Numbered from the stretch's first letter, positions 1,986-30,956 are shown. The stretch: 64,000 nucleotides of DNA from Rickettsiales bacterium (GCA_046348685.1 JAXMDT010000003.1:131749-195748), one strand, 5' to 3'. The notes: generated from the sequence alone by a model not told the origin. Numbers and translations are program-made.

Positions 1986-3068
1986 TTAATGACCGTAAAG
2001 CAGCTTAACATTGCCGCCGAGAGCTGAGGCGGCAAGGTCGGGATAGTCACTCAAAATCCGCTCAGCTTGAGGTGACGGGAAGCGATTATTATAAATATAT
2101 AGCCAGGCAATTTCATTCTCCTGGATTTTGCCGCCTTCGGTTACCTGCTTGGCGCCGGTTTTTTGTTCAAAGAAACTCGTGTCATCGTAAGTGTTGATCA
2201 ACAGCTTAACGAGGCGGTGCAGGGCGCCGCGCTCTTCCGAATAAAGGTCGATTCCATTGGCTGCAGCTATCTCCGCTGTAGCGACCAATGGCTGTGCGGC
2301 AAAAAAATGATATTTGCGTGCGCGGCCCGCTCGAAGCATCTCTGTGGGCAAGCTGCCGTCCTCGCGAATCTGGCGGATCCCTATACGCGCGCTTTCGACA
2401 CCCCAGTTAAACATGGATTGATCGTTGGTAACAACTGCGACGGATACCGCGCCCAGGCCATTCCAGTAACGTATGTTGTTTTCGCTGGTCCGCCGATCCT
2501 CGCGGGAATCAACGAAATTGATCATGGTTTTTGCAATCGAAGCAAGCCAGTTTAAAATTTTGGTTTTAGATTCTGCATCAAAAGCCGGATCATTACCGAA
2601 CTGCATGACTGAGAAAGACAGGGCAGCCAGCGTCTGGCCGATATGCAGTTGTGCCGTCCCCTGATTTAAATTAGAAAGAGCGTCCGCGTCAGCCCATTCT
2701 AAAAGCCAATCCTTCGCGCATTCAGCTACAGCGGATCGGTCATATTTGCCTTCGGTATACGTATTGGCCATCTTGACGATAGCCTGATTATATTCACGGA
2801 GCGGCGTTACTTTTTCGAGGTATTCTTTCCGCGATTCCTCATCGATAGTAGATCGGGTCGGGTCATCCTGACGATAGGAACTCGGCGCATCAATAGAGAT
2901 AATCGGGTCAGGAACCGATTCGCAGTCATATTCCTTCGGCTTCTTTTTAGCGACAACGGGAATGCCTGAAATTGTAAAAGGTGCGTTGAATGCCGCTGCA
3001 GTATACGCCGTTCCAGATAGGAAAAGCACCGCGATAGGGAAAATTAGCCGTAATGATACAGAATTCAT
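1986..3068 (-). CDS. algL: AlgL-like periplasmic polysaccharide lyase (PL5 alginate-lyase fold)
   Basis: 360 aa with an N-terminal signal peptide. By eye the C-terminal two thirds align with Pseudomonas AlgL: 'NNIRYWNGLGAVSVAVVTND' vs 'NNHSYWAAWSVMATAVATN', 'RAGRARKYHFFAAQPL' vs 'RRQRALAYHNYALPPL', and 'AAANGIDLY...GALHRL'. Confidence 0.8.
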   Translation of the reverse strand: MNSVSLRLIFPIAVLFLSGTAYTAAAFNAPFTISGIPVVAKKKPKEYDCESVPDPIISIDAPSSYRQDDPTRSTIDEESRKEYLEKVTPLREYNQAIVKMANTYTEGKYDRSAVAECAKDWLLEWADADALSNLNQGTAQLHIGQTLAALSFSVMQFGNDPAFDAESKTKILNWLASIAKTMINFVDSREDRRTSENNIRYWNGLGAVSVAVVTNDQSMFNWGVESARIGIRQIREDGSLPTEMLRAGRARKYHFFAAQPLVATAEIAAANGIDLYSEERGALHRLVKLLINTYDDTSFFEQKTGAKQVTEGGKIQENEIAWLYIYNNRFPSPQAERILSDYPDLAASALGGNVKLLYGH

Positions 3069-3118: not shown

Positions 3119-5650
3119 CTAGTCTTTCTTTTTCTCGATCACGGCTAACTGCTGCTTTGCATCTTCATTGCCAAGCCCTGCTGCCTTTTCTAACCAATAG
3201 ACGGCACGTTCCTGCGATTCCTGAACGCCGAATCCCGCCGCATACGCATTGGCCATTTCCAGCATTGCTGAAACATCACCAGCTTCCGCAGCTTTGTTCA
3301 TCCATAAGATAAAGGTCTTAGGATCGTTCTCCACAGCGCCGCCGCGAGCATACAGCCGGCCTAGTTTGCGCATTGCGGAAGGAGAGCCTTGCTCTGCGGC
3401 GATGGTTAAATATTTGATCGCTTCTTTCTGATCGCGTTCAACACCAATACCGCTCAAATAAAGCTCGCCCAGTTCGCTTGCCGCACTAAGATCACCCAGA
3501 TTGGCAGCACGCTTGAGCCAGAAAGCACCTTGCTGCGCGTTAAGTGGGCGACCCTTGCCTGCAACATAAAGCAGCCCCAGTTCACGCATTGCTTCGGCGT
3601 TGCCAAGCTCTGAGGCTTGTTCAAGATAATCCGCGGCGGAACGCAGCTCGGCATCCGACATCGGTTTCTGGGACATATAAGTTTCAGCAAGTTTTTCAAT
3701 CGATTTCGCATGGTTTTCTTTTGCGGCGATCTTGTAAAAAGTACGTGCCTTATTCAGGTCGACAGATACTCCCGGAGCCCCATGATGATACAGCTGGCCT
3801 AGTGCATAAGCTGCCTTGGCGAAATTATGGTTATTGACTGCTTTTTCCAGGAGCGGAATTGCATCTTTGGCGGTCTTGCCGGGTACGCGGCCTTCAATAA
3901 AAGCGTTAGCGAGCGCCAGCAAAGCGTCAGGACGTTTTTCACCTGGCAACAATGCGCGTTCGCGCCAGGAGCGGGCGAGATCGGTGCTTTTTTCCAGGAG
4001 ACTTCCTTCCTGATATAGCATGCTCAATTCCACCATTGAACGTTTGTCGCCGGATTCTGCAGCTTTGCGGATGAGGCTGACAGCTTCCTGCTTATCTTCA
4101 TTCGTCGGTAATGACAGAAGAAGCTTCGATAACTCGAGTTGTGCACTGGTGTTCCCGACGGAAACGCCACGCTCCAGCCAACGTCGTTGCTTGGTTGAAT
4201 CCGGATTAACACCAATGCCTTTTTCGTAGTTTTCAGCCATCAGCATGATAGCGTCATCATTACCAAGATTGGCAGCCAGGCGGTAAAAGCGCAGCGAACG
4301 TTTGATGTCCTGATCGACGCCGCGGCCATAGCGGTATGCTTCGCCAAGCATGAAAATACCATCGGTATTACCCGCTTTGGCAGCACGTTCGTACCAGCTG
4401 AATGCCGTGCTGTGGTTTTTGGGTGTGCCTTTGCCATATGCATAGGCATCGCCAAGCTTGACCCAAATTGCCGGGTCAACATCCGGATGCTGGGAAGCAA
4501 TGCTCAGCCATTTAAAAGCCTTATCAGGATCCTGCTTGCCGCTCATGGGATCGGAATAAAGCGTAGCCAATTTTTCGATTGAGCGTAGTTGATGCAAATT
4601 AGCGGCTTTTTCATACCATTGGATTGCCTTTGGCAGATTTAAAGCGACACCGTCGCCTTTTTCATAGATGCCGCCGAGAACGTACATGGCGCGGACGCTT
4701 CCCATGGAGGCTGCCCGTTCCCACAGCGCAACGGCTTTGTTGATATCGCGCGCGGTACCCAGTCCAGCCTTATACATATCAGCGACCTGGAGCATGGAGG
4801 AAACATCTTTATTGGCTTTGATGCTGGCCTCCAGCCAGAGGAGGGCGGCTTCATCATTTTTCGGTACAGCGCGGCTGCGGCTATACAGCCAGCCAAAGCT
4901 TTGCAGCGTGGTGCAATCGCCCTTGCCAAGATTGGCAAACAACATATTCTGGCCGAGCTTGATAAGCTGTTCCGGCTTTTCGCTATCGAGCGCCGGAATT
5001 TTTCCGCCGCGATGCAGCTTAGCTAAATTGAATGCTGAGAACGGGTCACCCTCTTTCAAAGCTGAGCGGTAGTATTCTGCAGCTTTCGTATAATTTTCCT
5101 GGCGTTCTTCTAAAGCGCCTAAAACCTTTTCAGCATCGAGAGGGCGAGCTTTTAAAGCATCGTTCGCCCAAGCACGTATCTGTTCAGCAGATGCGGTCTG
5201 GCCATCCTCTCCAACGCCAAGGCGCGCAAGTGCGATTTTAGCGTCAAGCGTGCGCTTGTTATTAGTGGAAGCTACATAATTGTAGAGTTTGTGCGCAGTT
5301 ATCTTGTTAGCGGCTATCTTGTCGTTGCCAGACATATAGAATTGCGCATACTCATACATGTTTTCAGGCGATTCAGCGCCGGATTTTCCATCCCATGCAG
5401 TCCAATCTTTCTGCGGTACTTTCAGAGCGACTGGTGCAACGCAGTTTTTGGTGAAATCACCTTCCGGCGGATACAGGGCATCAATATCTGTTACGGCAGT
5501 ATCAGAGACATCCTGAGTTGCATCAACGTTTTCTGTATCTGCAGAATCATCTGTTTCCGCAAAAACAAGGGGCGCTGCCGAAACTAACAGCAGTGCAACC
5601 AAACCGACGTAGCGAGCCTTAACGAGGCAATCCCAAACTGCTTCCCGCAT
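3119..5650 (-). CDS. Secreted Sel1-repeat (SLR/TPR-like) protein in the position of an AlgK-type scaffold
   Basis: 843 aa with a signal-like N-terminus. About 16-17 recognisable Sel1 units by eye, with recurring 'A..W..KAA..G...A...LG..Y..G.GV..D' (for example 'AVYWLEKAAGLGNEDA', 'GAFWLKRAANLGDLSA'). Confidence 0.8.
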   Translation of the reverse strand: MREAVWDCLVKARYVGLVALLLVSAAPLVFAETDDSADTENVDATQDVSDTAVTDIDALYPPEGDFTKNCVAPVALKVPQKDWTAWDGKSGAESPENMYEYAQFYMSGNDKIAANKITAHKLYNYVASTNNKRTLDAKIALARLGVGEDGQTASAEQIRAWANDALKARPLDAEKVLGALEERQENYTKAAEYYRSALKEGDPFSAFNLAKLHRGGKIPALDSEKPEQLIKLGQNMLFANLGKGDCTTLQSFGWLYSRSRAVPKNDEAALLWLEASIKANKDVSSMLQVADMYKAGLGTARDINKAVALWERAASMGSVRAMYVLGGIYEKGDGVALNLPKAIQWYEKAANLHQLRSIEKLATLYSDPMSGKQDPDKAFKWLSIASQHPDVDPAIWVKLGDAYAYGKGTPKNHSTAFSWYERAAKAGNTDGIFMLGEAYRYGRGVDQDIKRSLRFYRLAANLGNDDAIMLMAENYEKGIGVNPDSTKQRRWLERGVSVGNTSAQLELSKLLLSLPTNEDKQEAVSLIRKAAESGDKRSMVELSMLYQEGSLLEKSTDLARSWRERALLPGEKRPDALLALANAFIEGRVPGKTAKDAIPLLEKAVNNHNFAKAAYALGQLYHHGAPGVSVDLNKARTFYKIAAKENHAKSIEKLAETYMSQKPMSDAELRSAADYLEQASELGNAEAMRELGLLYVAGKGRPLNAQQGAFWLKRAANLGDLSAASELGELYLSGIGVERDQKEAIKYLTIAAEQGSPSAMRKLGRLYARGGAVENDPKTFILWMNKAAEAGDVSAMLEMANAYAAGFGVQESQERAVYWLEKAAGLGNEDAKQQLAVIEKKKD

Positions 5651-5708: not shown

Positions 5709-6416
5709 TTATTTTGCCGCGATATCGCTCACGGTCATTGTCGCCTGCCGGTTCGAGCCGGAACCCGTCAGCAGGAAGTTGACACCCGTGCGGCGCTTTA
5801 GCTCAACGCCAGGAAATGCTTTTACTTCCTTGCCTTCAGCATCATTAACTGCCACATCGATAGTCAATGCATTGACCTCGCGCGATGCACTTTCACCTGC
5901 TTTCACGCCAGAAACAATATCCGCTTTCTGCTTCACCGCATTAAGTGAAGCCGTGGCGGAATCCGAAAAATTATAAAAGTAGATCATTGCTTTAGCTGGG
6001 TTTTTTATCACTGCATCTTCCAGCGTTACCAATTCTTTTTTTCCATCTTTTTCAGTAATGGCAACAGAATAATACTTACCAGCTTCAATAGAAACCTTTT
6101 TGCTTACATCACCTGCCTTTGCCTCCTGCTCGCCTTGTGGAATAACGCGGTAAGGGGAAATCCCAGGCGCAGCTACGGAAGTATAAGATGCACTACCTAT
6201 AGTTGCATCAACGGCAGTTGCTGTCGTATTAATAATCCGCACGAAAGCGGAATCTGCAGGAGGTGTTGGATCATAAAGAGCGGTATCGTCCGCCGCGCTC
6301 ACTTCCTTAGCGAAAGAAAAAACTGAAAATACAACCGCTAAAGCCAAAAAGTAACGCACGGAAACCCTCCTGTCATGACAATAAATGTTAAGCAATTTAT
6401 TAATGCGGGAATGCAT
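5709..6416 (-). CDS. algF: AlgF-like periplasmic polysaccharide O-acetylation protein
   Basis: 'AADDTALYDPTPPADSAFVRIINT' resembles the AlgF N-terminus 'GDAALYGP.AP.GS.FVRLYN', and two beta-rich halves follow. Start moved to ATG 6414-6416 (MHSRINK...), which gives a signal peptide and sits 1 nt after the algX-like stop. The listed start at 6464 would overlap by 47 nt. Confidence 0.7.
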   Translation of the reverse strand: MHSRINKLLNIYCHDRRVSVRYFLALAVVFSVFSFAKEVSAADDTALYDPTPPADSAFVRIINTTATAVDATIGSASYTSVAAPGISPYRVIPQGEQEAKAGDVSKKVSIEAGKYYSVAITEKDGKKELVTLEDAVIKNPAKAMIYFYNFSDSATASLNAVKQKADIVSGVKAGESASREVNALTIDVAVNDAEGKEVKAFPGVELKRRTGVNFLLTGSGSNRQATMTVSDIAAK

Positions 6417-6417
6417 A

Positions 6418-7914
6418 TCAGCCTTTCTTGTCTTTTTCAATGTTGTTCTTGCTATTTGGGGCAAGACATAATCTCACATTGATGTCTGCCTTTACAGGCA
6501 AAGGGTTAATTAATGACACGCTTGTTAAGGCATCATTATCAATTTCATCGCTGAGTTCTACGAAAAAGCGGCCAGTATTTTTGAAATGTGATGAACGATC
6601 AATAGGAAACCATTCGCCATCACCGTCACCATAATCCAACTGAAGAGTAAATTTTGCTAATCCTAAATTGGAAACAGAAAGGAAAAGATAATAATCTTTT
6701 CCTGTAATATTTTTTTCGGGATCGAAAGATAGTAACGGAGTCGTCGTATTTGGGCCGACAGAAACAGTCTGGCTTCCAAGAACATCCTTGCCTTTACATG
6801 CACCGTAAATCCCTGGGATAATTTGCCGAAACGCATTGGCGCTATTGGCATTGATATCATAATTGGAAGGAGCCTCCCAAATTAAGAAGGGCGGCTTTGC
6901 GGATTCAAATTCTTCCGAAGATGTATAGGAAATAATTGAATTATAAAGCAGTCCACCATTGATAGCGTAATTTGCCAGTTCAAGGCCGGTTGCCTGAGCC
7001 AGAAATCCTTCAAAGTTGAATTTTTCTTCGGCGCTAAAGCTCGTACCCACTAAAACAGAGGGAGGCGAGCTATCCGCACCGCCGCCAAACAAATCTTCGG
7101 CTTTTTCTGAGCTTTTTTGACGGGTGATGTAAATGGGGAATTCTTCACCGGGAATATCTTTTTCACAGATGCGCTGAATTTCTTGAGCCATAAAATATTT
7201 CAGAAACTGTTTTTCTTTGAATGTCGTCTCGTATTTTTTTTTGGGCAAGGCATTATATTTTTCTGACTTTGATAGCTCGTCACGCACAAGGTTTGAGGAA
7301 AGCCTGGCTCCATAGGGCATCCAGTGGTGGTCACGTTTAAAGAAAAATGTCTCGCCGTCTGTGCCGACTTTATCTGCCATAGAACCCAGATCAGGTGTAA
7401 TGATGCCCATATTACGGAAAGATTGCAGGTAGTCGTGAAAGTTATGTTTTGCCCGTTCGATGGAATAATTTTTCATCACGGGTTCAGTATCATCAAAAAA
7501 TGCTTCGCCTATCCACGACCGCGGAGGGATAGTAACGAAAACCGGTGTAATGTTTCGTTGCTGAAGTGCTGCTGCGTAGCGCTTTAGATAAAAGCGCGCC
7601 TCGGAAAACAAATTAAAATTTTCAGAAAAATCCATCTCCTCGCGGAAGAACCACCCATTCGACCCTTGAAGGAATGTGCCATAATCTGTTTTTTCATGAT
7701 CCGCCAGGCGCGGACACGAAAATTCCTTTTCGCCAGCCAGATGCAACTGACGTTTTACCGGCTTGGCAATTTTTTTGCTGTCTTTTTTATTGTGATTAGA
7801 ATTTTTGCCAAAGGATTTTGCCGCCTCTTTAGGCGTTGAACCTGTTTGTGCAAACGCCATACACGGCGTACAAAGGGCTGCAAGCAGCAGAAAGCTTAGA
7901 AAATTTATGCGCAT
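6418..7914 (-). CDS. AlgX-like SGNH-type polysaccharide O-acetyltransferase with C-terminal beta-rich (carbohydrate-binding-like) domain
   Basis: 498 aa with signal peptide 'FLLLAALCTPCMAFA'. It has the catalytic-type motifs 'KRDHHW' (D-x-H-W) and 'VGTSFS' (G-x-S-x-S) as in AlgX/AlgJ. Size is close to AlgX. Confidence 0.75.
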   Translation of the reverse strand: MRINFLSFLLLAALCTPCMAFAQTGSTPKEAAKSFGKNSNHNKKDSKKIAKPVKRQLHLAGEKEFSCPRLADHEKTDYGTFLQGSNGWFFREEMDFSENFNLFSEARFYLKRYAAALQQRNITPVFVTIPPRSWIGEAFFDDTEPVMKNYSIERAKHNFHDYLQSFRNMGIITPDLGSMADKVGTDGETFFFKRDHHWMPYGARLSSNLVRDELSKSEKYNALPKKKYETTFKEKQFLKYFMAQEIQRICEKDIPGEEFPIYITRQKSSEKAEDLFGGGADSSPPSVLVGTSFSAEEKFNFEGFLAQATGLELANYAINGGLLYNSIISYTSSEEFESAKPPFLIWEAPSNYDINANSANAFRQIIPGIYGACKGKDVLGSQTVSVGPNTTTPLLSFDPEKNITGKDYYLFLSVSNLGLAKFTLQLDYGDGDGEWFPIDRSSHFKNTGRFFVELSDEIDNDALTSVSLINPLPVKADINVRLCLAPNSKNNIEKDKKG

Positions 7915-7962: not shown

Positions 7963-8649
7963 TTAACGCGTGGTAACGGAAGGTGTGACAAATCCGTATT
8001 TTAAGAGAAGTATCACCAGCTTGTAGAGAACTACCGCATTGATGAGATGCCACAAGAAATGCGTGCCTATGTGTAGCATGGGACACACTTCCAGGTCGAT
8101 GGTGCGAAAGACAAGCGATGCGGTCCATATAAAGACCACGTTGCGCAATGCGTTAAAGGCAGGGTGCGATAATGTGCGCAGCGCACCGAGGAGAAGAATC
8201 AGCACCGCGTAGGCGGGAATATACATAATTGTCCCGTGGAGCAGGTCATTCGGCAAAGCAATCTCAAAAAGATAACTAATGCCGACAAAAGCAATCCAGC
8301 AACCGATAGACGGCCAAATGCCGAAACGGATAATCCGTACCAAAAAAATAACGAGATAAAAATGAATGAATAAGGCAATCGGTATAACATCGCCCAGCAT
8401 GGCTTTTTGCGTTGCGATGGTATGCCATGCCGTGCTTCCGATACCGATGGCGACAAGTAATACAGTCAAAATTAAAATATCGATGCTCTGGCGTAGCGGA
8501 ATCTGTTGCTTGCGATATGCGGTAAATGCAAGAAAGGCGGCAATGATAAATGCAAGATTGGTGATTGCATTTAACGGTTCTGCCCAGAATCCGGCGTCGC
8601 CGGCACGTTCGCAGTAACCATCCAGGTAAGTTAATTGTGTGTCGGTCAT
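7963..8649 (-). CDS. Ceramidase-family (CREST-type 7TM hydrolase-like) membrane protein, paralog 1
   Basis: 228 aa and polytopic. The N-terminus 'YCERAGDAGFWAEPLNAITNLAFI' resembles the alkaline-ceramidase entry motif, and internal 'WH' and C-terminal 'GTHFLWH' (H-x3-H) are present. Same strand as the algX-like gene, 48 nt upstream of it. Confidence 0.5.
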   Translation of the reverse strand: MTDTQLTYLDGYCERAGDAGFWAEPLNAITNLAFIIAAFLAFTAYRKQQIPLRQSIDILILTVLLVAIGIGSTAWHTIATQKAMLGDVIPIALFIHFYLVIFLVRIIRFGIWPSIGCWIAFVGISYLFEIALPNDLLHGTIMYIPAYAVLILLLGALRTLSHPAFNALRNVVFIWTASLVFRTIDLEVCPMLHIGTHFLWHLINAVVLYKLVILLLKYGFVTPSVTTR

Positions 8650-8663
8650 AGCCTGAAGATAGA

Positions 8664-9380
8664 TTAGGCGAAATGCTCCGCCGCTTTGCGCAGCATGCGC
8701 GCACGTCGGTTGACGTTTCGCACAAGCTGTTTGACGAGAATAAAGATTAGCACGGCATTCAAACTGTGCCAGAGAAAATGTGTGCCAAAGGGAATCATGT
8801 CACAGACATAGTTATCAACAGAACGGAAAAACAGCGAAACGACTCCGATGATTGAAGCGACGAGAAATTTTCGCGCTGAAAAACGGCGCTTCATATTTAG
8901 GTGCAGTGCAAAAAGAATTAGCGCAGTCATGCTGGAAAGATAACCAATCGAATCATTCATGGCATTTGGAAATGCGTTTACCAGCATATGCGTGCCGCCT
9001 GCATAGGCGACGAGTCCGATAAAGGCCTGCAGCCAGTTGCACTTAGCAATGCGGAACAAGGCGCTCGTAAAGTAGATCACGATGAACCCGACAATAAAGC
9101 TCATGTCGAGCAGCTCGGTAAGTTGGGAAGGCATGGTATGGAAAAAGAAGCTGGCGATTCCAATGCAGAAAGTCAGCAGGACTAGAAGGTAAATATCCCA
9201 GATCCAAAATCCCTTTAGGTCATCGCGAATGCTGAGCATGTAGCGCAGTAGTAGTATTGCTGCGATGATAAAGCCGAGGTTGGTGATGGTATTTAACGGT
9301 TCGCCAAAAAAATAGGTGGGATCAGTACGTTCACATAACCCGTAATGATGGCTTATTTCAGTATTCGCTCCTTCATTCAT
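8664..9380 (-). CDS. Ceramidase-family (CREST-type 7TM hydrolase-like) membrane protein, paralog 2
   Basis: 238 aa and clearly paralogous to 7963-8649: 'LCERTDPTYFFGEPLNTITNLGFI' and 'GTHFLWHSLNAVLIF'. The two genes are 14 nt apart. Confidence 0.5.
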   Translation of the reverse strand: MNEGANTEISHHYGLCERTDPTYFFGEPLNTITNLGFIIAAILLLRYMLSIRDDLKGFWIWDIYLLVLLTFCIGIASFFFHTMPSQLTELLDMSFIVGFIVIYFTSALFRIAKCNWLQAFIGLVAYAGGTHMLVNAFPNAMNDSIGYLSSMTALILFALHLNMKRRFSARKFLVASIIGVVSLFFRSVDNYVCDMIPFGTHFLWHSLNAVLIFILVKQLVRNVNRRARMLRKAAEHFA

Positions 9381-10060: not shown

Positions 10061-10079
10061 TCCGGTTTTTCTCCTCAAA

Positions 10080-10113
10080 CCCTGCAATAGGCTGCTATTG
10101 CAGGGTTTTTTTA
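10080..10113 (+). terminator. Rho-independent terminator after hsp20
   Basis: An 11-bp perfect stem CCCTGCAATAG / CTATTGCAGGG with a GCTG loop, followed by a T run. Confidence 0.7.
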
Positions 10114-10215
10114 TTTTTTAGCATAAGATGACAATTCAGTTAAGCCGTGTCGCATTTCACTAGGAGTTGTGCGCTGCACCGCTATGCTGGCCCTAATTAA
10201 CAAAAAGTAATAATC

Positions 10216-13200
10216 ATGGCTTACGATAACACAATCCTGCTCAGCGCTAATCCGCTTGAAATCACCCACCATCTGACAAATCTTTACATTCAAGAATTAG
10301 GCACGACAGACCCTGCCATCGCAGCGCTGCTTAGTGAATTCAGAAATACAATCTGGCCTTTCGATGGGAAGTTGCCATCCCTCCAAGAAAAAGAAGGTAT
10401 CACAGAGCGTATAATCAACGCTGGCAAGATGCATAGCTATACCGCACAAAAGCAGCTTCTGACAGGTATGATGCGGTTAGGCCAGCTCTACGACGTAGCG
10501 GCAATAGCGGCGAGAGGTAATGCATTCGATCAGAATAGAATAAAGCATGGTGAGGATCGGGTTTCAGACTCAACGGGGGGTGTTGAAAATTTATTTGAAA
10601 CCTTTATCGAGCGCCATAAAACGAAAAGCGTGCTTGAACGTACTTCGGCAGGTTCATCAGATCAATATGCGCTACAATTCGATAAACAACCGAACTCAGT
10701 AATTCGAGACACACTTTCTGCGTTAAGTAAGCCTATTTTTGAAATGGTTATGACAACGCACCCCACTAATGTGAATGCGTTGGAAAGCCTTGAGCAGCTA
10801 AGAAACTTAGGAAAAGCGATTCATACTTATCGTAAGAACCAAGGCGATGACCTAAATCAACTGCAAGCAATGCAGGGTGCCGAGGAGCAAATAAAAACCG
10901 CCTTCAGCGGTTTGATGACGGTAGATGCTATCCCGATGAAGCATACGGAAAGTGGTAAAATTCCCGGCAAACTTTCAGTGCGCGGCGAAGTGGATATGGT
11001 GCTTTTCTACTTGAAAAGCCTGTATGATGATTTGCCTCAGGTTTATCGTGGCTTTGAACAACCGCTACGGCGCCTGCAACGTAAGCAGATTATTTCGCCT
11101 GACGAAATTTATAACCCTCTTGATTTAAAATTGAACATCCGTGCGAGTGCCTGGGGCCTTTCCGGTGACAAGGATGGTAACAAAAACATCAATGCCGATA
11201 CAACTCTGGAAGCGTTGTTAGCGACGAAAGTCGCGTTAATGGATTTATATTTGAAAGAAATTGCCGGTCTCTCCGAGAGTGTGCAGGCGCGGCTTCACAA
11301 CAAAATAAATGATTTCACGGAGCGAAAAACTGCCTACGAGAAAGGTTTGCAGGAGGTCGAGGAATTTATTGGTAGCGAGAAATTTATACCTGCAAGGAAA
11401 TTTAATGCGATCGTACGAAAACTACCAAAACCGGACAAAACGGAGGCGAGGGATTTTGTCGCGCTGTTAGAGGAGATTTATAACACTACGCCTGAAGAAG
11501 AGCGTGCAGGTCTCCTTACATTTATCCGGCGGGTGCGCTCGTTTGGATACCATTTTGCTAAAATCGAATACCGTGAGACTGCAGAAGAATATGCGCGAGT
11601 CGTAGCGGAAATCGTCCCCGGTTACAAAGCGCTCCATGAGCGTGGTATCGCCCTTAAAAACGATCTGGAGAATCTGGAAAATACCGCGCGGGTCGCTTCT
11701 CAAAGGGAAGGATTGCTTGCAGAATTCGCTGCAGTGGAAAAGGCTTCCAAAGCTATTGGTTCTGCTGAAAATCCGCTTACAGACGCGGAGTTGCGCGAAC
11801 GCATAAGACGCCTATCGCGTTCCGTAGATCCAGGCGATCAGGTGGAAACAGACGATGTTGGGCTTATGCCGTTGCAAAAAGGTGCGTTGCTGAAACGGCT
11901 TGATGCATTACGGGGAAAACTCCATGCTTTGAAATCTCCCGACGATATCCAGGATGATCGCCGAAAACTGCATCGGGAGCTGGACGAAATCGAGGCCAGG
12001 AAGCGATCTTTGCTAACGGAAGCACTCGATAATAACAAAGCACCGGCGATGTTGAAAAAGCACATGCGTCAGATTGTTGATGAAGGCAGCGCAAGACCCT
12101 ACGATAAAGAAACGGATCATCCGCGCAATGCAATGCCGATCGCGTATCATACTATTAAGCGGATGGAATTGGCTCGTGAATTCCCTGAGATGATCACAGC
12201 TAATGTCCTGGCGGAATGCCAGAATACCAGTAATATCCTGGAAGCCGTTTTCCTGCAGGCTGCCTGTGCGGATAAAAATGGCAAACGGCCCATAATGGGC
12301 GTCGTGCCGCTTTTTGAAGAACCCGACACCATGAAAAACGTGGGTACCATCATGGGCGATGCATATCGAAATCACGCATATGATAAACATATGAACCTTG
12401 TTGCCAAGCACCTGGGAGAAATGGGCTGGACTGATGGCGCCAAGCGCCAGCAGGTGCAGATCGCGCATAGTGATAATGCACGCCGCTCAGGATTTCTGGC
12501 GGCGCGCGCGTTTATCGACGAAGCGCATAAGGAGATTCGGGCGCTGAACAAGCAGTACAACATTAAGACCGAATTCTTCGAAGGAGGAAGTATCTCCGAT
12601 TCGTATCGTGGCGGCGTGCGCTCGATTTCGGCGGCGGTTAATGAATATGGTCTGCATGACTTTATGAAATTCACGTTTCAGGGCGGTGACCTGCCTAATT
12701 ATTTCGGTTCACCCGGCTCAACCGTTCGCTTGTTTACGCGGAATCTGGCGCACGCGGCAAAGCAGTTAAGCGACAACGGCGAAGCTGAGTATAAGGAAAC
12801 CGACTCCAATATCACCAACTATAGTGAAATTGCTCAGGAAGCACTCAAGAAAACCTTGCCGGATTACCAGAGAAATATCTTTAACCAGGCGATGATGGGT
12901 AATTTCATGAAATATGCAGTCGATCCCTATGGCAACGTGGGATCGCGCGCCGGGGCAAGGGGTGGCGCGGCGCAAACTGACCCGGATAAAGTACGCACCA
13001 TCGGATTCAGCGAAATGTTTCAACATGCAGGCGCACATCCTGCATGGCTGGGAGCCGAAACGCTCGCCGCTAATTTGGCGCAGGAGATTTTAACGCGCCT
13101 TCCCTCAACGGCAGGGCTTTATAGCGACTATGTGCCTGTCACTATGAAAAAAGGGGCGCAGGTGGAAGATGTTTTCTTTCTGCCCGCTGATGGAGATGTC

Positions 13201-13896
13201 AAAAAAGTAGATCCTGCCATTTATGGCGTTTTTTACGATAAATCTGCGGTGTTCCGAAATGCGGTGGATGGCATGGCATTTGGCTTAGCTGTCAGCAATC
13301 TCGATGCCTTGAAAAAGAATTATCCAATGCTTGCTGAAGATCCCTTTGTGAAGCGGATGGAAAGGGATTACCGTGCAGCAGCGCATATTGCGCTTGGCGC
13401 CCTGCACGAGCCTGCAAATGGCCCTGAAAAATTTACTGGAAACCATCGTGCGCGGGCACGCAAGGAAACGGATGCCCGCATGATTGCCCTCGACCCGACA
13501 GTACCGCTTTCAGTGCTAAGGGAAAAAATTCGTGAGCGGTTACCCCATCTGCAGGCATCGATTGAGCAAAAAGGTGCGTTGTTCGATGCGGTGGCAAGCA
13601 TGAAGTCCAGCTGGCGCCGGGATTGGGAATGGCAGGCGGCAGAGGAAAAAGACAGCACGTTCAAGGTGCCGCGCGAAGACGATATTCAGCATGGCTGGAT
13701 GCTGCATCTGGCGCATGGCGCTATCGATTCAGTGACGCACGGGCGCTACCTTATGGCGGATGATCCTATGTATATGCGGATGATCTATCCTGAATATTAT
13801 GCATCCTTAAGTACGAAGCGGAAGCTCCACCAGGAAGAGCCAACAAAGCTTCATATTCGGGTCGATACGCCGCAAGGTGGCAGAGCAGGACGTTAA
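10216..13896 (+). CDS. Phosphoenolpyruvate carboxylase-like protein, very long and highly divergent
   Basis: 1226 aa. PEPC landmarks are visible in the correct order. These are 'VMTTHPTNV' (cf VLTAHPTE), 'VVPLFEEPDTMKNV' (cf VVPLFE..DL.N), 'VQIAHSDNARRSGFLAA' (cf VMIGYSDSAKDAGVMAA) and 'FFEGGSISDSYRGG' (cf FHGRGGSIGRGG). They continue with 'KFTFQGGD' (cf RVTEQGE) and 'VRTIGFSEMFQHAGAHPAWLGAE' (cf [24 protein letters not shown]). Confidence 0.7.
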   Translation: MAYDNTILLSANPLEITHHLTNLYIQELGTTDPAIAALLSEFRNTIWPFDGKLPSLQEKEGITERIINAGKMHSYTAQKQLLTGMMRLGQLYDVAAIAARGNAFDQNRIKHGEDRVSDSTGGVENLFETFIERHKTKSVLERTSAGSSDQYALQFDKQPNSVIRDTLSALSKPIFEMVMTTHPTNVNALESLEQLRNLGKAIHTYRKNQGDDLNQLQAMQGAEEQIKTAFSGLMTVDAIPMKHTESGKIPGKLSVRGEVDMVLFYLKSLYDDLPQVYRGFEQPLRRLQRKQIISPDEIYNPLDLKLNIRASAWGLSGDKDGNKNINADTTLEALLATKVALMDLYLKEIAGLSESVQARLHNKINDFTERKTAYEKGLQEVEEFIGSEKFIPARKFNAIVRKLPKPDKTEARDFVALLEEIYNTTPEEERAGLLTFIRRVRSFGYHFAKIEYRETAEEYARVVAEIVPGYKALHERGIALKNDLENLENTARVASQREGLLAEFAAVEKASKAIGSAENPLTDAELRERIRRLSRSVDPGDQVETDDVGLMPLQKGALLKRLDALRGKLHALKSPDDIQDDRRKLHRELDEIEARKRSLLTEALDNNKAPAMLKKHMRQIVDEGSARPYDKETDHPRNAMPIAYHTIKRMELAREFPEMITANVLAECQNTSNILEAVFLQAACADKNGKRPIMGVVPLFEEPDTMKNVGTIMGDAYRNHAYDKHMNLVAKHLGEMGWTDGAKRQQVQIAHSDNARRSGFLAARAFIDEAHKEIRALNKQYNIKTEFFEGGSISDSYRGGVRSISAAVNEYGLHDFMKFTFQGGDLPNYFGSPGSTVRLFTRNLAHAAKQLSDNGEAEYKETDSNITNYSEIAQEALKKTLPDYQRNIFNQAMMGNFMKYAVDPYGNVGSRAGARGGAAQTDPDKVRTIGFSEMFQHAGAHPAWLGAETLAANLAQEILTRLPSTAGLYSDYVPVTMKKGAQVEDVFFLPADGDVKKVDPAIYGVFYDKSAVFRNAVDGMAFGLAVSNLDALKKNYPMLAEDPFVKRMERDYRAAAHIALGALHEPANGPEKFTGNHRARARKETDARMIALDPTVPLSVLREKIRERLPHLQASIEQKGALFDAVASMKSSWRRDWEWQAAEEKDSTFKVPREDDIQHGWMLHLAHGAIDSVTHGRYLMADDPMYMRMIYPEYYASLSTKRKLHQEEPTKLHIRVDTPQGGRAGR

Positions 13897-13960: not shown

Positions 13961-14036
13961 GGGGGCGTAGCTCAGTTGGTAGAGCGCCTGCTTTGCAAGC
14001 AGGATGTCGCGGGTTCAACTCCTGTCGCCTCCACCA
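13961..14036 (+). tRNA. tRNA-Ala (anticodon UGC)
   Basis: Hand-folded cloverleaf with acceptor GGGGGCG/CGCCTCC including the G3:U70 identity pair. Anticodon loop is TTTGCAA, T-loop is TTCAACT, and the CCA is encoded. 76 nt. Confidence 0.95.
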
Positions 14037-14060: not shown

Positions 14061-16334
14061 TTAGTTGAAATCGGCGAAGTTGCCTTCGGTCAGGCTCGCC
14101 AGTTCCGTATGCGTCACGCCTTGCAGACGGGCCACAAACTCAAGTGTATCATCAACTGCCGCTAAACTGCCTGGATTCGCGACTTCCGTAATTCGAACGA
14201 GACGGGCATCGGTCCCGTTGCTTACCAGCGCGTAAATAATATCTCCGGTTGCCAGATCGTCGGCAATGCCGCTCAGCGCCGAGTAGATATCTGCCTCAGA
14301 GAAACTGGCTACAGTATTCGTAGCGACGTAAATTCCGGCGTTGGCATCAAGGGTCTGCGCAGTGCTGGCGTTGCCTTGCGCGAATTCGATTCCAGTACCG
14401 CGCAGGCTGCCAACGCTTAGATCACTAAAGTCAATGACATCGGCCTCGCCGGTAAAGGCGTCGGTCACAAGGTCAATCAGTGTATCGCTCGCCGCAAGTT
14501 CAGCAATTTTATACGAGAAGGTATCCGCACCCAGTCCCCCGGATATTGTGTCAGCGCCAAGGCCGCCTGCGATGGTATCATTGGCGAGCCCGCCATTTAT
14601 ACTGTCTTCATTAGCGCCGCCTGTAATGCTGTCGCTGCCTTCTCCGCCGCGAATCGAGCTATCGGCAATACCGTCAAGGGCAATGCCTCCGTCCCCAGCA
14701 AGAATGGTATCGTTACCCGCACCTCCGGTGATCGTATCAACGCCATCGCCACCATTCAGGCTATCTGCCCCATCGCCACCGGTCAAAATGTCGTTGCCCG
14801 CGCCGCCGGTAAGGGCGTCACCCTTGCTGCCTGCAATCAATTGATCATTATTCGCCGTGCCGGAGAGGGCGGCTGTCGTCGTGCCGCCGACATTTGACAG
14901 GAAGACCGAGCCATCGCCAAAGGTCAGGTTTATCGCGGTGAATGTTCCGGCGTAATTCTGGAACACATAAGCACCGAGCCCTGCGCCAAAATTGTTTGTA
15001 AGTGTCGCTGACGAACCGAGATTGGTAGCGACAATGTCAATGGCAGAGCCACCGGATAGAGTAATTTGCGCCGAATCCGTTTTTTCGAAATTAGTAAATG
15101 TTACCGTCGCATCCGAGATCAGTGCAGAATCGTTGATCTTGAAGATATCATTTCCGGTGCCGCCATCAACCGTCAGCCCTGAGGAATTGGCGCGAGCGCC
15201 GCTGATAACGATCGTATCGGCCGCAACGCCGCCAAAAATCGCCAACGTTTCGCCCGCTGCAAGATTTGCAGTAGAAGTGATCGTATCCGCGCCGCCATTA
15301 CCATAAACGTAGGTATGATCGCCGGCGCTTCCGGAACCAACCAGAATGGTGTCGGCGGTATCGAGACTATCGCCTGCCCCGTTGCCACCGTAAATAGTTA
15401 CATTGCCCAGATGCGAGGTTGTATCAATGGTATCGGATCCGCGGTTTCCATAAATCAACAGCTTGCCTAGTGAACCCGTGCCGCCAATATCCCCTGATAT
15501 CGTGTCTGCTCCTGCACCGCCCGTCAAAATTTGTGACGCAGTAGCGGCAAAATCATCATAGAAAAGCACGTCATCACCGGCATTGCCATGCACGGCACTA
15601 TTGCCAAGGCCGCTGGTTAAAATATCAGCACCATCGACGGTATCGGCCGAGGTCGTATTGCCTAAAATGGTAATCGAGCCGGTGGCGCCGGCGCCGTTTA
15701 TCGTATCGTTGCCACGGCCACCGTACACATTAACAATACCTGCTGCATTACTGATGATTACGTTGTCGTCTCCAATTCCCACGCGCACGATAGATGTCTT
15801 GCCAAGACCTGTTGGATTCGTGAAAATAACAGTATCGTTACCGGCGTTGGTAAAAATATGATTGTTTCCGCTGGTGCCTCCACCGCCGTTAATAACAATG
15901 CGGTCCCCGCCGTCTGTTGTGTCGCTTTCACCTGTTCCCCCGTACACAATGTTGTCGTCGTTACCGACGGAAATCGTATCGGGGCCGCCCATGCCGAAAA
16001 GTACATTTGACTTATTCAAGTAAGACGATGCGCTACCGAACAGGTCGAGCGGCCCTAAATCAGTTTGGCTAAGGTCATCATCAGTCGTCGTAAGCATGTT
16101 GTCACCAACTACCAGATGGGAATTCGTTTCAGCGAAAATGAAATTACTGGTGGTGATCTGGGCAAGGCTTATGCCCTTCAACTTTGTAACCTGAGCGCCA
16201 TGCGTGATGGTAACTCCTGCGCCGCTTTGCGCATAAACATAATCGCTGGCGCTGCCGGGCAGATAAAGAACGTCAGCTGCGGCTGAGAAATTGGAAATAG
16301 TGCCTGCAATAGAATTATATTGTATAACTGACAT
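14061..16334 (-). CDS. RTX / hemolysin-type calcium-binding repeat protein (probable type I secretion substrate)
   Basis: 757 aa, Gly/Asp/Thr-rich. There is a block of canonical nonapeptides 'GGAGNDILTGGDGADSLNGGDGVDTITGGAGNDTILAG' and many looser G-x-G-x-D units upstream. It has no Cys and no N-terminal signal peptide. Confidence 0.85.
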   Translation of the reverse strand: MSVIQYNSIAGTISNFSAAADVLYLPGSASDYVYAQSGAGVTITHGAQVTKLKGISLAQITTSNFIFAETNSHLVVGDNMLTTTDDDLSQTDLGPLDLFGSASSYLNKSNVLFGMGGPDTISVGNDDNIVYGGTGESDTTDGGDRIVINGGGGTSGNNHIFTNAGNDTVIFTNPTGLGKTSIVRVGIGDDNVIISNAAGIVNVYGGRGNDTINGAGATGSITILGNTTSADTVDGADILTSGLGNSAVHGNAGDDVLFYDDFAATASQILTGGAGADTISGDIGGTGSLGKLLIYGNRGSDTIDTTSHLGNVTIYGGNGAGDSLDTADTILVGSGSAGDHTYVYGNGGADTITSTANLAAGETLAIFGGVAADTIVISGARANSSGLTVDGGTGNDIFKINDSALISDATVTFTNFEKTDSAQITLSGGSAIDIVATNLGSSATLTNNFGAGLGAYVFQNYAGTFTAINLTFGDGSVFLSNVGGTTTAALSGTANNDQLIAGSKGDALTGGAGNDILTGGDGADSLNGGDGVDTITGGAGNDTILAGDGGIALDGIADSSIRGGEGSDSITGGANEDSINGGLANDTIAGGLGADTISGGLGADTFSYKIAELAASDTLIDLVTDAFTGEADVIDFSDLSVGSLRGTGIEFAQGNASTAQTLDANAGIYVATNTVASFSEADIYSALSGIADDLATGDIIYALVSNGTDARLVRITEVANPGSLAAVDDTLEFVARLQGVTHTELASLTEGNFADFN

Positions 16335-16494
16335 AAGCTCTGCGCCTTAAATTGATATTACAATGACATAAGCATGAATCGTGCCAAGTGTAATCCTTAC
16401 CCATGAAAAATGGCTTAACGCATGGCTGCAAAGGCGCATTAACTAAAAAGTAGCAGTAGAGCCTTAGGATGAAACTGCACTATTGGGATCATTT

Positions 16495-17394
16495 ATGACC
16501 AAGATTCTTGCCGTCGATGATGAGGAATTTAATCTCGATATTCTTGTCGAATATCTGGAAGCGGAATCCTACACCGTCGTGCAGGCAACAAACGGCCAGG
16601 AAGCCTGGAAAAAACTCGAAGAAAATCCTGATGTCGCTGTGATCCTGCTGGATCGCATGATGCCGGTTATGGATGGAATGGCTTTCAATGCCAAAATCAA
16701 AGATGACAAGCGCTTCAAAGATATTCCAGTCATCATGCAGACGGCTGCCGCCGCACAGCACGAAGTGGAAGAGGGTATTAAGGCGGGTGTCTTTTATTAT
16801 CTGACCAAACCTTACCGCCGTGAAATGATGATGGGGATCGTCCGCTCAGCGATTTTGCACGGCGAATCCCTGCATACGATTTCTGAACAGTTGGACAAGA
16901 ACATCAGTGTACTCGGCCTGATGCGCCACGGCACATTTCAGTTCCAGACGCTGGAACAGGCGCATGTGCTGGCCAGCTTTATCGCTCAATGCTGTCCTGT
17001 TCCAACAAGTGCCAGCCTTGGTTTGAGTGAGCTTATGGTCAATGCAGTCGAGCATGGCAATCTGGGCATCACGTATGCGGAAAAATCAGCGTTGATTCAG
17101 TCAGGTACCTGGCAGCAGGAAGTGGAACGACGCCAGGCAGTACCTGAAAACCAGATGAAATTTGCTAAACTGGAATATCACCTGGATGGCGACTTGCTGC
17201 TTATTCGTATCAAAGATGAAGGCAAAGGCTTCGATGTCTCGCGCTATCTGAACATTGATCCGCTGCGTGCAACCCACCCTAATGGTCGCGGCATAGCCAT
17301 GGCGCGCCTGACAAGTTTTGATGATTTGGAATATATTGGCCCGGGAAATGAGGTGCTCTGTACCATTCGTCTCAAAAAGCACATGCTCAATTAG
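16495..17394 (+). CDS. Response-regulator receiver fused to RsbW/SpoIIAB-type serine kinase domain (HATPase_c_2)
   Basis: REC domain: 'KILAVDDEEFN...ILLDRMMPVMDG...TKP'. Kinase domain: N box 'ELMVNAVEHGN', G1 'DEGKGFD', G2 'GRGIAMAR'. Start set at ATG 16495; the listed TTG at 16483 is possible. Confidence 0.75.
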   Translation: MTKILAVDDEEFNLDILVEYLEAESYTVVQATNGQEAWKKLEENPDVAVILLDRMMPVMDGMAFNAKIKDDKRFKDIPVIMQTAAAAQHEVEEGIKAGVFYYLTKPYRREMMMGIVRSAILHGESLHTISEQLDKNISVLGLMRHGTFQFQTLEQAHVLASFIAQCCPVPTSASLGLSELMVNAVEHGNLGITYAEKSALIQSGTWQQEVERRQAVPENQMKFAKLEYHLDGDLLLIRIKDEGKGFDVSRYLNIDPLRATHPNGRGIAMARLTSFDDLEYIGPGNEVLCTIRLKKHMLN

Positions 17395-18558
17395 CTAAAT
17401 ACGCTGCAGGATAGCAATTGTCAGATCGTCCTCGACGCAGTCGTCACCGGTTGTTTCATAAAAAGCAGAAAGGATTGCCGTGAGCATCGTTTGCGGCGAC
17501 ATGGTTTTATTAAAGCGCTGGCATGTCGCCAGTAACCCAGACTCATCGAAAGCCTGATTTCCGACGCGTTGCTTTTCAATCAAGGCATCGCTGTAAGTGA
17601 TGAGTGTATCAAGCAACTGGAAGGGAGTGGACTGAGTTTTGTAAATGGTGTTTTCCTTGACGCTAAGCGGTAACCCATTGCCGCTCAACACGCGCAGGTT
17701 ACCGCCGGATTCTAAAATAATAGCGTTAGTGCTCGCTGCAACAGCATAATCAAGGCGGCTTTCAAGCAGGTTGATAACGCCATAAAACATGGTGGCAAAC
17801 TCCCGAGTCATCAGGATTTCGTGCAGATAATTATTCAACTCCGTCAGATAGTCGCCGGGACGGTTATGTAATGGCAATTTTGATTCAATCAATGTGTGCA
17901 GCCTGAATGTATTCATCGCGGCCATGACGCCGTGGCCGGCAAAATCAACTTGGTAAAGCGCGATTTCATGTTCGCTTATTTTTTTTATGCCCCAGAGATC
18001 GCCGCTCAATTCTTCAGAGGCAACAAAATGCGATGCTATTTTTAAATTAAAAAAATCTTCTAGCTTTGCAATGGATTCTTTACTGGGAAGAATGGACATT
18101 TGCATGGAAATTGCTTGCGAAAGTTCACTTTCCGTGCGTTCCTGATGCTGCAGCAGATTACGCTGTAAAATGCGGTTCTCCAGATGCACTGTGGCGCGTG
18201 CGATCAACTCCGCCGGGGAGATCGGTTTCAAAATAAGGTCTGTAGCGCCGGCGGCAAAGGCTTGCGTATGTTTTTCAGTGTCGGCCAGTGCTGTTTGCAC
18301 AATGACAGGCGTTGTATCATAGGGTGAAATACTGCGAATTTTCTTAAGGTAATCATACCCATCCATGCGCGGCATGATTAGGTCCAGCACAACGAGGTCC
18401 GGATTGAGTTTTACCGTTTGCTCAATGCCTTCTATGCCGTCGTTCGCAAAATAAACAGACTGGTACCCGGCATCCGAAAATATGCCGCTAATAATCGAAC
18501 GCCCTATGGCGGAATCTTCAATGACAAGAATTTTAGTAGCCTGATTGAAGGGCTGCAT
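17395..18558 (-). CDS. Response-regulator receiver fused to PP2C/SpoIIE serine phosphatase (RsbU-like)
   Basis: REC domain: 'KILVIEDSAIG...VVLDLIMPRMDG...LKP'. SpoIIE domain: 'SGDLWGI...DFAGHGVMAAM', 'ATMFYGVI', 'ITYSDALIE', 'EDDLTIAIL'. Confidence 0.85.
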   Translation of the reverse strand: MQPFNQATKILVIEDSAIGRSIISGIFSDAGYQSVYFANDGIEGIEQTVKLNPDLVVLDLIMPRMDGYDYLKKIRSISPYDTTPVIVQTALADTEKHTQAFAAGATDLILKPISPAELIARATVHLENRILQRNLLQHQERTESELSQAISMQMSILPSKESIAKLEDFFNLKIASHFVASEELSGDLWGIKKISEHEIALYQVDFAGHGVMAAMNTFRLHTLIESKLPLHNRPGDYLTELNNYLHEILMTREFATMFYGVINLLESRLDYAVAASTNAIILESGGNLRVLSGNGLPLSVKENTIYKTQSTPFQLLDTLITYSDALIEKQRVGNQAFDESGLLATCQRFNKTMSPQTMLTAILSAFYETTGDDCVEDDLTIAILQRI

Positions 18559-19043: not shown

Positions 19044-20084
19044 ATGCAATATCGTAAGCTCGGCACCACGGATATTTCAGTTAGCCTGATCTGTTTAGGA
19101 ACGATGACCTGGGGTGAGCAGAATACGGAAGCAGATGCCCATGCGCAAATGGATTATGCGACAGGCGAGGGCGTGAATTTTTTCGACGCGGCGGAAATGT
19201 ACCCTGTGCCACCACGCGCAGAAACGCAGGGTGCGACGGAGCGTTTTATAGGCTCTTGGCTGAAGGCACGTGGCAAGCGTGATAAAGTCATCCTTGCGAC
19301 TAAAGTAGTTGGACCGGACGAAGGTTTTAAACATGTGCGCGGTGAAATGCCACGCCTAAATAAAGATCATATCCACCGCGCTTTGGATGCGAGCCTAATG
19401 CGCCTGCAAACGGATTATATCGATCTTTATCAACTCCATTGGCCAGAGCGTACGACAAATTATTTCGGCCAGCTCGGTTACCGCCACGTAGATAATGAAG
19501 ACACTGTCAGTCTTGAGGAATCTTTGCATGTGCTGCATGAGATTGTTCGAAGCGGCAAAGTACGCGCCATTGGTATTTCCAATGAAACGCCGTGGGGAAT
19601 GATGACATTTCTCAAATTATCCGAGACCAAAAAATATACGCGTATCGTCAGCATTCAGAATCCTTATAACTTGCTGAACCGGAGTTTTGAAGTCGGACTT
19701 GCGGAGTGCTCCATGCGTGAAGGGTGTAGGCTTCTTGCTTACTCACCCATGGCGTTCGGCATGCTGAGTGGAAAATATATCGGTGGCACCAGGCCGCCCA
19801 AGTCTCGGCTCACATTGTTCTCGCGTTTCCAGCGTTACACAAATCCGCTGGGGCAGGCGGCGACGGAGCGTTATGTGGAATTGGCGCGTCGCTATGAACT
19901 CAGTCCGGCGCAAATGAGCTTGGCTTTCATTAATCAAAAGCCTTTTGTCACCAGCACAATTATCGGTGCGACGACTTTGGAGCAGCTTAAAGAGAATATT
20001 GACAGCGTGAATGTGAAATTATCGGACGAGGTGCTGGCGGAGATTGATGCGATTCATCAGGATATACCCAATCCTTGTCCCTGA
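19044..20084 (+). CDS. tas: Aldo/keto reductase, Tas family
   Basis: 'MQYRKLGTTDISVSLICLGTMTWGEQNTEADAHAQMDYATGEGVNFFDAAEMYPVPPRAETQG' is close to E. coli Tas. Starting at ATG 19044 after GGGGAG gives 346 aa. Confidence 0.85.
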   Translation: MQYRKLGTTDISVSLICLGTMTWGEQNTEADAHAQMDYATGEGVNFFDAAEMYPVPPRAETQGATERFIGSWLKARGKRDKVILATKVVGPDEGFKHVRGEMPRLNKDHIHRALDASLMRLQTDYIDLYQLHWPERTTNYFGQLGYRHVDNEDTVSLEESLHVLHEIVRSGKVRAIGISNETPWGMMTFLKLSETKKYTRIVSIQNPYNLLNRSFEVGLAECSMREGCRLLAYSPMAFGMLSGKYIGGTRPPKSRLTLFSRFQRYTNPLGQAATERYVELARRYELSPAQMSLAFINQKPFVTSTIIGATTLEQLKENIDSVNVKLSDEVLAEIDAIHQDIPNPCP

Positions 20085-30498: not shown

Positions 30499-30573
30499 AA
30501 TGATCGTAAATACCCGGAACAGCGCACTTAACCGGGATTTATTAAGCACGGATTATGTGTCTGGAGAGCGATC

Positions 30574-30942: not shown

Positions 30943-30956
30943 GAGATACCTTTAAA

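Follow-up and report, generated by a model that had tools for sequence, protein, structure and literature searches.

A divergent phosphoenolpyruvate carboxylase homologue with family-wide altered active-site motifs in uncultured Rickettsiales-like alphaproteobacteria

The gene, its product and the protein family

The stretch of Rickettsiales bacterium DNA analysed here (GCA_046348685.1, JAXMDT010000003.1:131749-195748; 64,000 nucleotides (nt), referred to as the window, with positions counted from its first letter) carries a gene whose product resembles phosphoenolpyruvate carboxylase (PEPC). The gene is a complete open reading frame (ORF) of 3681 nt, uninterrupted on the plus strand, and its product of 1226 amino acids (aa) is identical to NCBI entry MFO1242239.1, which is located on a 203-kb contig and annotated as 'MAG: phosphoenolpyruvate carboxylase [Rickettsiales bacterium]' (MAG, metagenome-assembled genome). 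An original prediction made from the DNA alone had described an ORF of this length, about 340 aa longer than Escherichia coli Ppc, with several altered PEPC motifs and without the conserved C-terminal NTG. All of this was borne out: translation ran without interruption, the excess over the 883-aa E. coli protein (reference sequence from NC_000913) was 343 aa, the motif strings TTHPTN, AHSDNARR, FEGGSISDSYRGG, TFQGGD and PAWLGA were all located (Table 1), and the protein ends in ...GGRAGR.

The PEPC-like gene is solitary in the window, with genes for Hsp20, tRNA-Ala and a protein with RTX repeats as its neighbours. A terminator-like hairpin 3' of Hsp20, the upstream neighbour, makes it probable that the PEPC-like gene is transcribed alone, and the tRNA-Ala gene forms the downstream boundary of the unit.

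The 1226-aa protein is a genuine homologue of PEPC, though a very distant one. The Pfam profile PF00311 (PEPcase) was matched in two stretches with 130.9 bits, well above its cutoff of 22.4 (E=5.6e-38), so that the protein belongs to the superfamily at profile level. The score against the NCBIfam ppc equivalog NF000584 was 120.1 bits, far below the cutoff of 815, and the archaeal-type models TIGR02751 (25.2 bits, cutoff 146) and PF14010 (20.9 bits, cutoff 25) were not reached either; with 1226 aa the protein also lies outside the size of archaeal-type subunits (~500-560 aa). When PDB sequences were searched directly with phmmer, the match to E. coli Ppc reached no more than E=8e-6. Profile-profile alignment (hhalign) of the family described below with canonical PEPCs gave a probability of 100% and E=6.5e-56 over 811 columns (window protein 1-1140, E. 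coli 1-853). An AlphaFold2 model of residues 1-1200, with a 24-sequence family alignment as input, reached a mean predicted local distance difference test score (pLDDT) of 84.3 and a predicted template modelling score (pTM) of 0.86. The best 50 matches of this model in a Foldseek search of the PDB were all PEPCs (E. coli 1JQN/1FIY, maize, Arabidopsis and Flaveria; also 6mgi), with E ~1e-24 and target-normalised template modelling (TM) scores of 0.66-0.73; the structure prediction proposed in the original prediction thus gave the PEPC fold over the full length. The pyrophosphate-dependent phosphoenolpyruvate carboxykinase (PEPCK), an enzyme of similar size which has the PEPCK fold and not the PEPC fold, was considered as another identity and was rejected because the best Foldseek matches were all PEPCs.

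Relatives of the window protein were collected in two ways. A word-indexed search returned 23 relatives with E values from 0 to 1e-83, followed by a gap down to canonical PEPCs at E>=1e-9. A HMMER profile search of 1.84 billion cluster representatives returned more than 75 clusters at 50% identity above 800 bits, then a graded tail of diverged proteins of 1000-1400 aa, and canonical PEPCs (~930 aa) at ~190-210 bits. When 148 full-length sequences were aligned, the full family signature was found in 108, and all seven core residues (E. coli H138, R396, E506, D543, R587, R699 and R713) were kept in every one of these. The window protein is 21-53% identical to its family relatives (median 32.5%) and ~19% identical to canonical PEPCs, and 61 columns of the family alignment do not vary, with column identity averaging 30%. 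In a scan with one genome for each GTDB species, 36 genomes carried the gene; all are MAGs, their labels being Rickettsiales, Alphaproteobacteria, Pseudomonadota or Rhodospirillaceae and, in one case, Azospirillum brasilense. The family is confined to uncultured Rickettsiales-like alphaproteobacteria.

Two further observations concern the edges of this distribution. Sequences P0111-P0160 form a graded series of more diverged PEPC-fold proteins of 1000-1250 aa with other lid-loop variants, such as FHGGS..D..RGG (in which His579 is kept) and YEG(K/R)S..H..R.G, and the H/R/E/D/R/R/R core is kept in all of them; they may be further uncharacterised subclasses or evolutionary intermediates. Family member P0021 is encoded on a 124-kb bacterial contig (L042, GCA_013558355.1, JACCDH010716171.1) within an assembly of more than 700,000 contigs, probably produced for a eukaryote genome; this is a hint of host association for some of the family's carriers.

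The broad PEPC identity is not new, as databases already label the protein 'PEPC' from its Pfam match. Four types of PEPC are recognised: bacterial, plant-type, plant bacterial-type and archaeal-type (PMC8100219). The protein fits none of them and belongs to a subclass without a curated model. The suggestion of a deep, distinct PEPC lineage in the original prediction was therefore upheld, the protein falling outside every characterised subfamily (120 versus 815 bits; 25 versus 146 bits). Literature searches on this PEPC family returned no describing paper; one match related to Rickettsiales concerned host enzymes.

Active-site residues, the helical arm and known PEPC types

Catalytic positions were tabulated from a MAFFT L-INS-i alignment of E. 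coli Ppc, nine canonical PEPCs and 24 family members, to which all residue counts in Table 1 refer. The catalytic histidine, the metal ligands E506 and D543 and the PEP-phosphate arginines R396, R699 and R713 (PEP, phosphoenolpyruvate) were all found in the window protein, together with R587, the only residue kept from the canonical loop FHGRGGxxGRGG. The TEQGE motif, the Asp/malate site and the terminal (Q/R)NTG were absent. Five of the seven catalytic residues named in the original prediction are thus kept (H138, R396, R587, R699 and R713), H579 and R581 are replaced, and both metal ligands, which it had not named, are kept as well. At the Asp/malate site, the window protein has V, K and T opposite K773, R832 and N881, and these positions vary across the family; the last ~30 E. 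coli residues are aligned with uncertainty, as the hhalign alignment ends at E. coli residue 853.

Table 1 Features of the PEPC-like gene and of its surroundings in the window
Feature	Position	Strand	Residues (aa)	Remarks
PEPC-like gene	10216..13896	+	1-1226	complete ORF
TTHPTN	10753..10770	+	180-185	H182 = H138 (catalytic base), 24/24; family T(A/T)HPTN; N185 in place of E141: N 22, S 2
WGLSGDKDGN	11152..11181	+	313-322	W313 = W248, hydrophobic pocket, kept; GDKDGN where canonical PEPC has GDRDGN
EYRETAEEY	11566..11592	+	451-459	R453 = R396, PEP-phosphate ligand, 24/24
Charged helical arm	11623..12090	+	~470-625	lineage-specific; six predicted helices between ~470 and 624
PLFEE	12307..12321	+	698-702	L699 = L504, kept; E701 = E506, metal ligand, 24/24
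Q748			748	at M538 (CO2 pocket): Q 23, M 1
AHSDNARR	12463..12486	+	750-757	D753 = D543, metal ligand, 24/24; R756 at K546: R 20, K 4; R757 at D547: R 24/24
Rebuilt lid loop FEGGSISDSYRGG	12577..12615	+	788-800	one residue longer than canonical; E789 at H579: E 20, Q 3, Y 1; G791 at R581: G 23/24; R798 = R587, 24/24
TFQGGD	12673..12690	+	820-825	stands for canonical TEQGE; F821 at E612: F 18, Y 3, V 2, E 1; G824 at E615: G 22, I 1, L 1
GSRAGAR ... VRTIGFSE	12940..13014	+	909-933	PEP-phosphate ligands and mobile loop II; R911 = R699, 24/24; R927 = R713, 24/24; R915 = R703, 20/24
PAWLGA	13039..13056	+	942-947	common to canonical PEPC; G946 invariant in family
THGRYLMADDP	13735..13767	+	1174-1184	family C-terminal motif in place of canonical (R)NTG; then a 42-aa variable tail
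Terminator-like hairpin	10077..10118	+		14-bp stem and T-run, 3' of the upstream Hsp20 gene
tRNA-Ala(TGC)	13961..14036	+		65 nt past the stop codon
MBOAT/AlgI	556-1974	+		alginate-type O-acetylation/lyase cluster
Alginate lyase	1986-3068	-		same cluster
Sel1-repeat protein	3119-5650	-	843 in total	same cluster
AlgF	5709-6464	-		same cluster
AlgX	6418-7914	-		same cluster
Ceramidase-family (PF05875) membrane protein	7963-8649	-		first of a tandem pair
Ceramidase-family (PF05875) membrane protein	8664-9380	-		second of the pair
RTX calcium-binding-repeat protein	14061-16334	-	757 in total	just past the PEPC-like and tRNA-Ala genes
Response regulator-HATPase_c_2 protein	16483-17394	+		anti-sigma-type kinase
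Response regulator-SpoIIE/PP2C phosphatase	17395-18558	-		convergent with the preceding gene
Heparinase II/III-like protein	20057-21718	-
Chemotaxis cluster	27329-32105			CheA (896 aa), CheB (382 aa) and neighbours
ORF without Pfam match	34709-36475	+	588 in total
Isocitrate dehydrogenase	37126-38604	-	492 in total	C-terminal domain PF18324
ORF without Pfam match	38831-40024	+	397 in total

The altered motifs are themselves conserved. The lid loop follows the consensus (F/Y)(E/Q)GGSxSDxxRxG across the family, with G790, S792, S794, D795, R798 and G800 invariant; among the replacing residues, N754, R757, G790, S792, S794 and D795 do not vary, and the residues H1175, G1176, R1177 and D1183 of the C-terminal motif are each at least 90% conserved. 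Such fixation across diverged relatives argues for purifying selection on an alternative active-site architecture and not for decay. The catalytic motifs had been described in the original prediction as eroded; this does not hold, since the core residues are invariant and the 108 relatives, diverged as they are, share the altered motifs. It was also considered that R757, at the position of D547, compensates for the lost R581, and this idea was dropped because relatives with R or K at 581 mostly keep R at 547.

The excess of the window protein over E. coli Ppc lies between R396 and E506, where it has 248 aa (family median 137, range 122-248; canonical 113, E. coli 110), and after R713, where it has 299 aa (family median 236, canonical 165, E. 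coli 170). From the N-terminus to H138 it has 182 aa (family median 169, canonical 150). The region between R396 and E506 contains a charged helical arm. A charged, coiled-coil-like insertion had been predicted at aa 380-620; the extra helical segment is indeed present but spans only ~470-625, as residues 306-466 align to E. coli 241-409. Charged residues make up 36% of the arm segment versus 27% of the whole protein, and model confidence in it is low at aa 536-551 (pLDDT ~41). In this segment ~90 aa are missing from P0002, the relative nearest to the window protein (55% identity, syntenic locus), and BLASTP aligned residues 480-514 and 568-603 of the window protein to one and the same P0002 segment, which suggests that the arm arose partly from an old internal duplication of a helical hairpin; no tandem DNA repeats of note were found as its origin. 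The segment, a hypervariable part of the protein surface, is longest in the window protein, and most family members are near the canonical length there; the arm is thus an elaboration specific to this lineage and does not characterise the family. In E. coli the region between R396 and E506 contributes to the tetramer interface (R438/E433), so that an effect of the arm on oligomerisation is possible.

With the bacterial/plant-type PEPCs (PF00311; NF000584; 1FIY/1JQN; maize, Arabidopsis) the family shares the full-length fold, the catalytic histidine, the Glu and Asp metal ligands, the three phosphate-binding arginines, the lid-loop Arg587, the W248/L504 pocket, GDxDGN and PAWLG. It differs from them by HPTN for HPTE, AHSDNxRR for GYSDSxKD, FEGGSxSDxYRGG for FHGRGGxxGRGG, TFQGG for TEQGE and FQHA for WTQNR, by the lack of NTG, and by the new motif HGRxxxADDP. 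Long PEPC polypeptides into which regions have been inserted in particular lineages are also known among the plant and algal bacterial-type PEPCs (BTPCs) and elsewhere (PMC8100219), and the window protein, too, has grown by insertions at its surface. The canonical catalytic motifs, as a rule kept in BTPCs, are not kept in the present family.

Archaeal-type PEPC, although strongly different from the bacterial/plant enzymes, is counted as a class among the true PEPCs (PMC8100219). The Clostridium perfringens structure 3ODM, deposited as phosphoenolpyruvate carboxylase, was used as its reference, and full-length metagenomic genes were confirmed against it. Its motifs read MMTQHPDN, IIPLVED, MIARSDTAMSYG, PILGCGSLPFRGH, KTFTFQSA and PRAISFT, with the end ...VRGSIG. 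In profile-profile alignments its IARSDTAMSYG stretch and its loop ILGCGSLPFRGH lay opposite IAHSDNARRSG and FEGGSISDSYRGG of the family, and HPDN was paired with HPTN, PLVED with PLFEE, TFTFQSA with KFTFQGG, and PRAISFT with RTIGFSE. His579 and Arg581 are absent from both GCGSLPFRGH of the archaeal type and GGSISDSYRGG of the family, while GS and the aromatic-Arg-Gly are kept in both. Like the family, 3ODM is without E141, K546, D547, H579, R581, E612, E615 and NTG; these residues are therefore not universal requirements of PEPC, which removes the main argument for a lost or changed chemistry. The likeness is one of motifs and not of membership, since the family is no nearer to archaeal-type PEPC (hhalign probability 92, E=6e-7) than canonical PEPC is (probability 90, E=1.8e-6). 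Archaeal-type PEPC, unlike the window protein, has ~540 aa and is without the N-terminal and much of the helical domain. A special affinity of the loop region to the archaeal type was also tried and rejected: a PDB search with aa 745-848 ranked canonical PEPCs first, and 3ODM was not among the matches. As judged from these alignments, the archaeal-type-like motif states would be convergent or ancestral and are not a sign of membership.

Proposed function and competing explanations

The window protein is considered, with a probability of about 60%, to be a working PEPC with an anaplerotic role, representing a new structural subclass on the large bacterial/plant-type fold. In such an enzyme PEP would be carboxylated to oxaloacetate, by which the tricarboxylic acid (TCA) cycle would be replenished. 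Mg2+ or Mn2+ would be bound by E701 and D753, and the PEP phosphate by R453, R911 and R927; bicarbonate would attack the phosphate, giving carboxyphosphate and the enolate of pyruvate; H182 would deprotonate carboxyphosphate; and the CO2 would be caught in a pocket of W313, L699 and Q748, where it would be attacked by the enolate beneath the lid loop at 788-800 with its retained R798. H138 and R587 are reportedly needed for carboxylation but not for PEP cleavage, and as both are invariant in the family, the carboxylation step is argued to be retained. Mutagenesis has tied the same two residues to the catalytic activity of E. coli PEPC (Terada & Izui 1991 and Yano 1995, cited in PMC11832675). 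Because the Asp/malate pocket and NTG are absent, the C-terminal motif is new and the arm is variable, regulation would be non-canonical and oligomerisation possibly different.

The gene neighbourhoods give some metabolic context. In a larger subclade the isocitrate dehydrogenase (ICDH) gene icd lies directly upstream on the same strand, at a distance of 50-100 bp, on the contigs of P0007, P0017, P0021 and P0023 and at L017, L028, L029 and L030, and in three of these icd-linked loci sucA-sucB-lpdA are found a few kb from the PEPC-like gene. Since the icd copies of these loci share ~80% identity with one another, they count only in part as independent observations. The linkage to icd and sucAB-lpdA is the only recurrent metabolic one, and it points to the TCA cycle. 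YaaA is the upstream neighbour in five loci, Hsp20 in the window and at the P0002 locus, where the same arrangement is repeated in synteny; no operon partner conserved across the whole family was found in the neighbourhoods examined. Besides ICDH and DapA, the window genome encodes chemotaxis proteins and enzymes of fatty-acid synthesis, a gene content which argues against a minimal obligate parasite and under which anaplerosis would be needed; ICDH and DapA in particular suggest that TCA intermediates are drawn off for biosynthesis. Among the ORFs of at least 400 aa in the 64-kb window, no match to pyruvate carboxylase, PEPCK, malic enzyme or pyruvate phosphate dikinase (PPDK) was found; the 588-aa ORF among them matched no Pfam family of any kind. 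The ICDH of the window is a 492-aa form with the bacterial C-terminal domain PF18324, encoded 23 kb from the PEPC-like gene; the icd genes adjoining the PEPC-like gene in other carriers (L042-L044 and the P0007 contig) encode proteins of ~400 aa.

Several findings weigh against a functional PEPC. H579, which has been reported to be important for the activity of E. coli PEPC (PMC11832675), is replaced by E in the window protein and R581 by G; E789, D795 and R757 place new charges beside the presumed bicarbonate/carboxyphosphate site, by which the second substrate could be changed; in the CO2 pocket, M538 has become Q; and the icd linkage is limited to two related subgroups and is absent at the window locus. 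An enzyme of changed chemistry, which would keep the PEP/metal site and act on PEP or a related phospho-enol or phosphonate compound with an acceptor other than bicarbonate or with another product, is unlikely but the strongest of the alternatives. The swaps concerned (D547->R, H579->E, R581->G, I585->D, E612->F, E615->G and Q397->E) are systematic, family-wide and clustered at the lid loop and the beta6/beta7 loop region; E789, D795, R757 and E454 are family-specific charges seen in neither canonical nor archaeal-type PEPC, S794 is a further family-specific state of this kind, the score against the ppc equivalog cutoff of 815 is only 120 bits, and the further-diverged relatives with other loop variants form a graded series. 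On the other side, the two residues assigned above to the carboxylation step are invariant, most of the 'lost' residues are missing from a recognised class, the archaeal-type PEPC, as well, and the neighbourhoods offer no conserved operon partner of another pathway, their recurrent metabolic members being TCA genes only. It is also conceivable, if rather improbable, that the more than 100 clusters at 50% identity represent a fifth structural class built on the PEPC fold, with non-carboxylating chemistry or else wholly different regulation, in which an acidic lid loop and a charge-swapped active-site rim would serve, for example, another phosphoryl or enolpyruvyl acceptor; the window protein would then be its first recognised member.

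The original prediction had also raised the possibility of a pseudoenzyme recruited to another role. In this reading a catalytically dead PEPC fold would act in regulation or as a scaffold, and the helical arm would be its interaction module. Two residues of the FHGRGG motif are lost, large charged insertions of helices and an extended C-terminus are present in the window protein, and its gene stands solitary beside stress (Hsp20) and RTX genes. This explanation is nevertheless very unlikely and the suggestion was not supported, because the metal ligands, phosphate arginines and catalytic histidine, which pseudoenzymes normally lose, are invariant in 108/108 relatives at 21-53% identity, and because the arm is not a family feature (segment length 122-248 aa). 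Decay of a canonical ppc gene, or an assembly artefact, would account for the non-canonical motifs and has nothing else in its favour. It is effectively refuted by the family-wide conservation: the 3681-nt frame is intact, the protein is identical to the deposited NCBI entry, a 55%-identical syntenic orthologue and more than 100 diverged relatives carry the same motifs, and the fold is confidently predicted over its full length.

If the family is active as PEPC, it would follow that H579, R581, E141, the glutamates of TEQGE, K546/D547 and NTG are dispensable on the large PEPC scaffold, and a fifth class would stand beside the four recognised ones (PMC8100219). If instead the chemistry has changed, a new reaction would be found on a well-studied fold. 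The family matters for the metabolic reconstruction of uncultured Rickettsiales-like lineages, in which a protein at 15% of the equivalog threshold is automatically annotated as 'PEPC'. With its Asp/malate pocket absent, the family is also a possible source of feedback-insensitive carboxylases.

Other genes of the window

Upstream of the Hsp20 and PEPC-like genes lies an alginate-type O-acetylation/lyase cluster, followed by tandem ceramidase-family membrane proteins, and this gene order is repeated in the related contig L002 (coordinates of the window genes in Table 1). On the downstream side, L002 contains an extra gene for a 939-aa heparinase/RTX/peptidase-M10 fusion between the PEPC-like and RTX genes, and a separate heparinase II/III-like protein is encoded in the window.

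Past the RTX gene there is a convergent pair of genes in which response regulator domains are fused to an anti-sigma-type kinase and to a SpoIIE/PP2C phosphatase, and a STAS-domain gene adjoins the equivalent pair in L002. From their domains, the convergent pair and the STAS gene together resemble a partner-switching module that is controlled by two-component signalling. Two ORFs of 588 and 397 aa in the window were without a Pfam match at E<=1e-5. The chemotaxis cluster suggests that the organism, despite its label, is probably motile, unlike classical obligate intracellular Rickettsiales.

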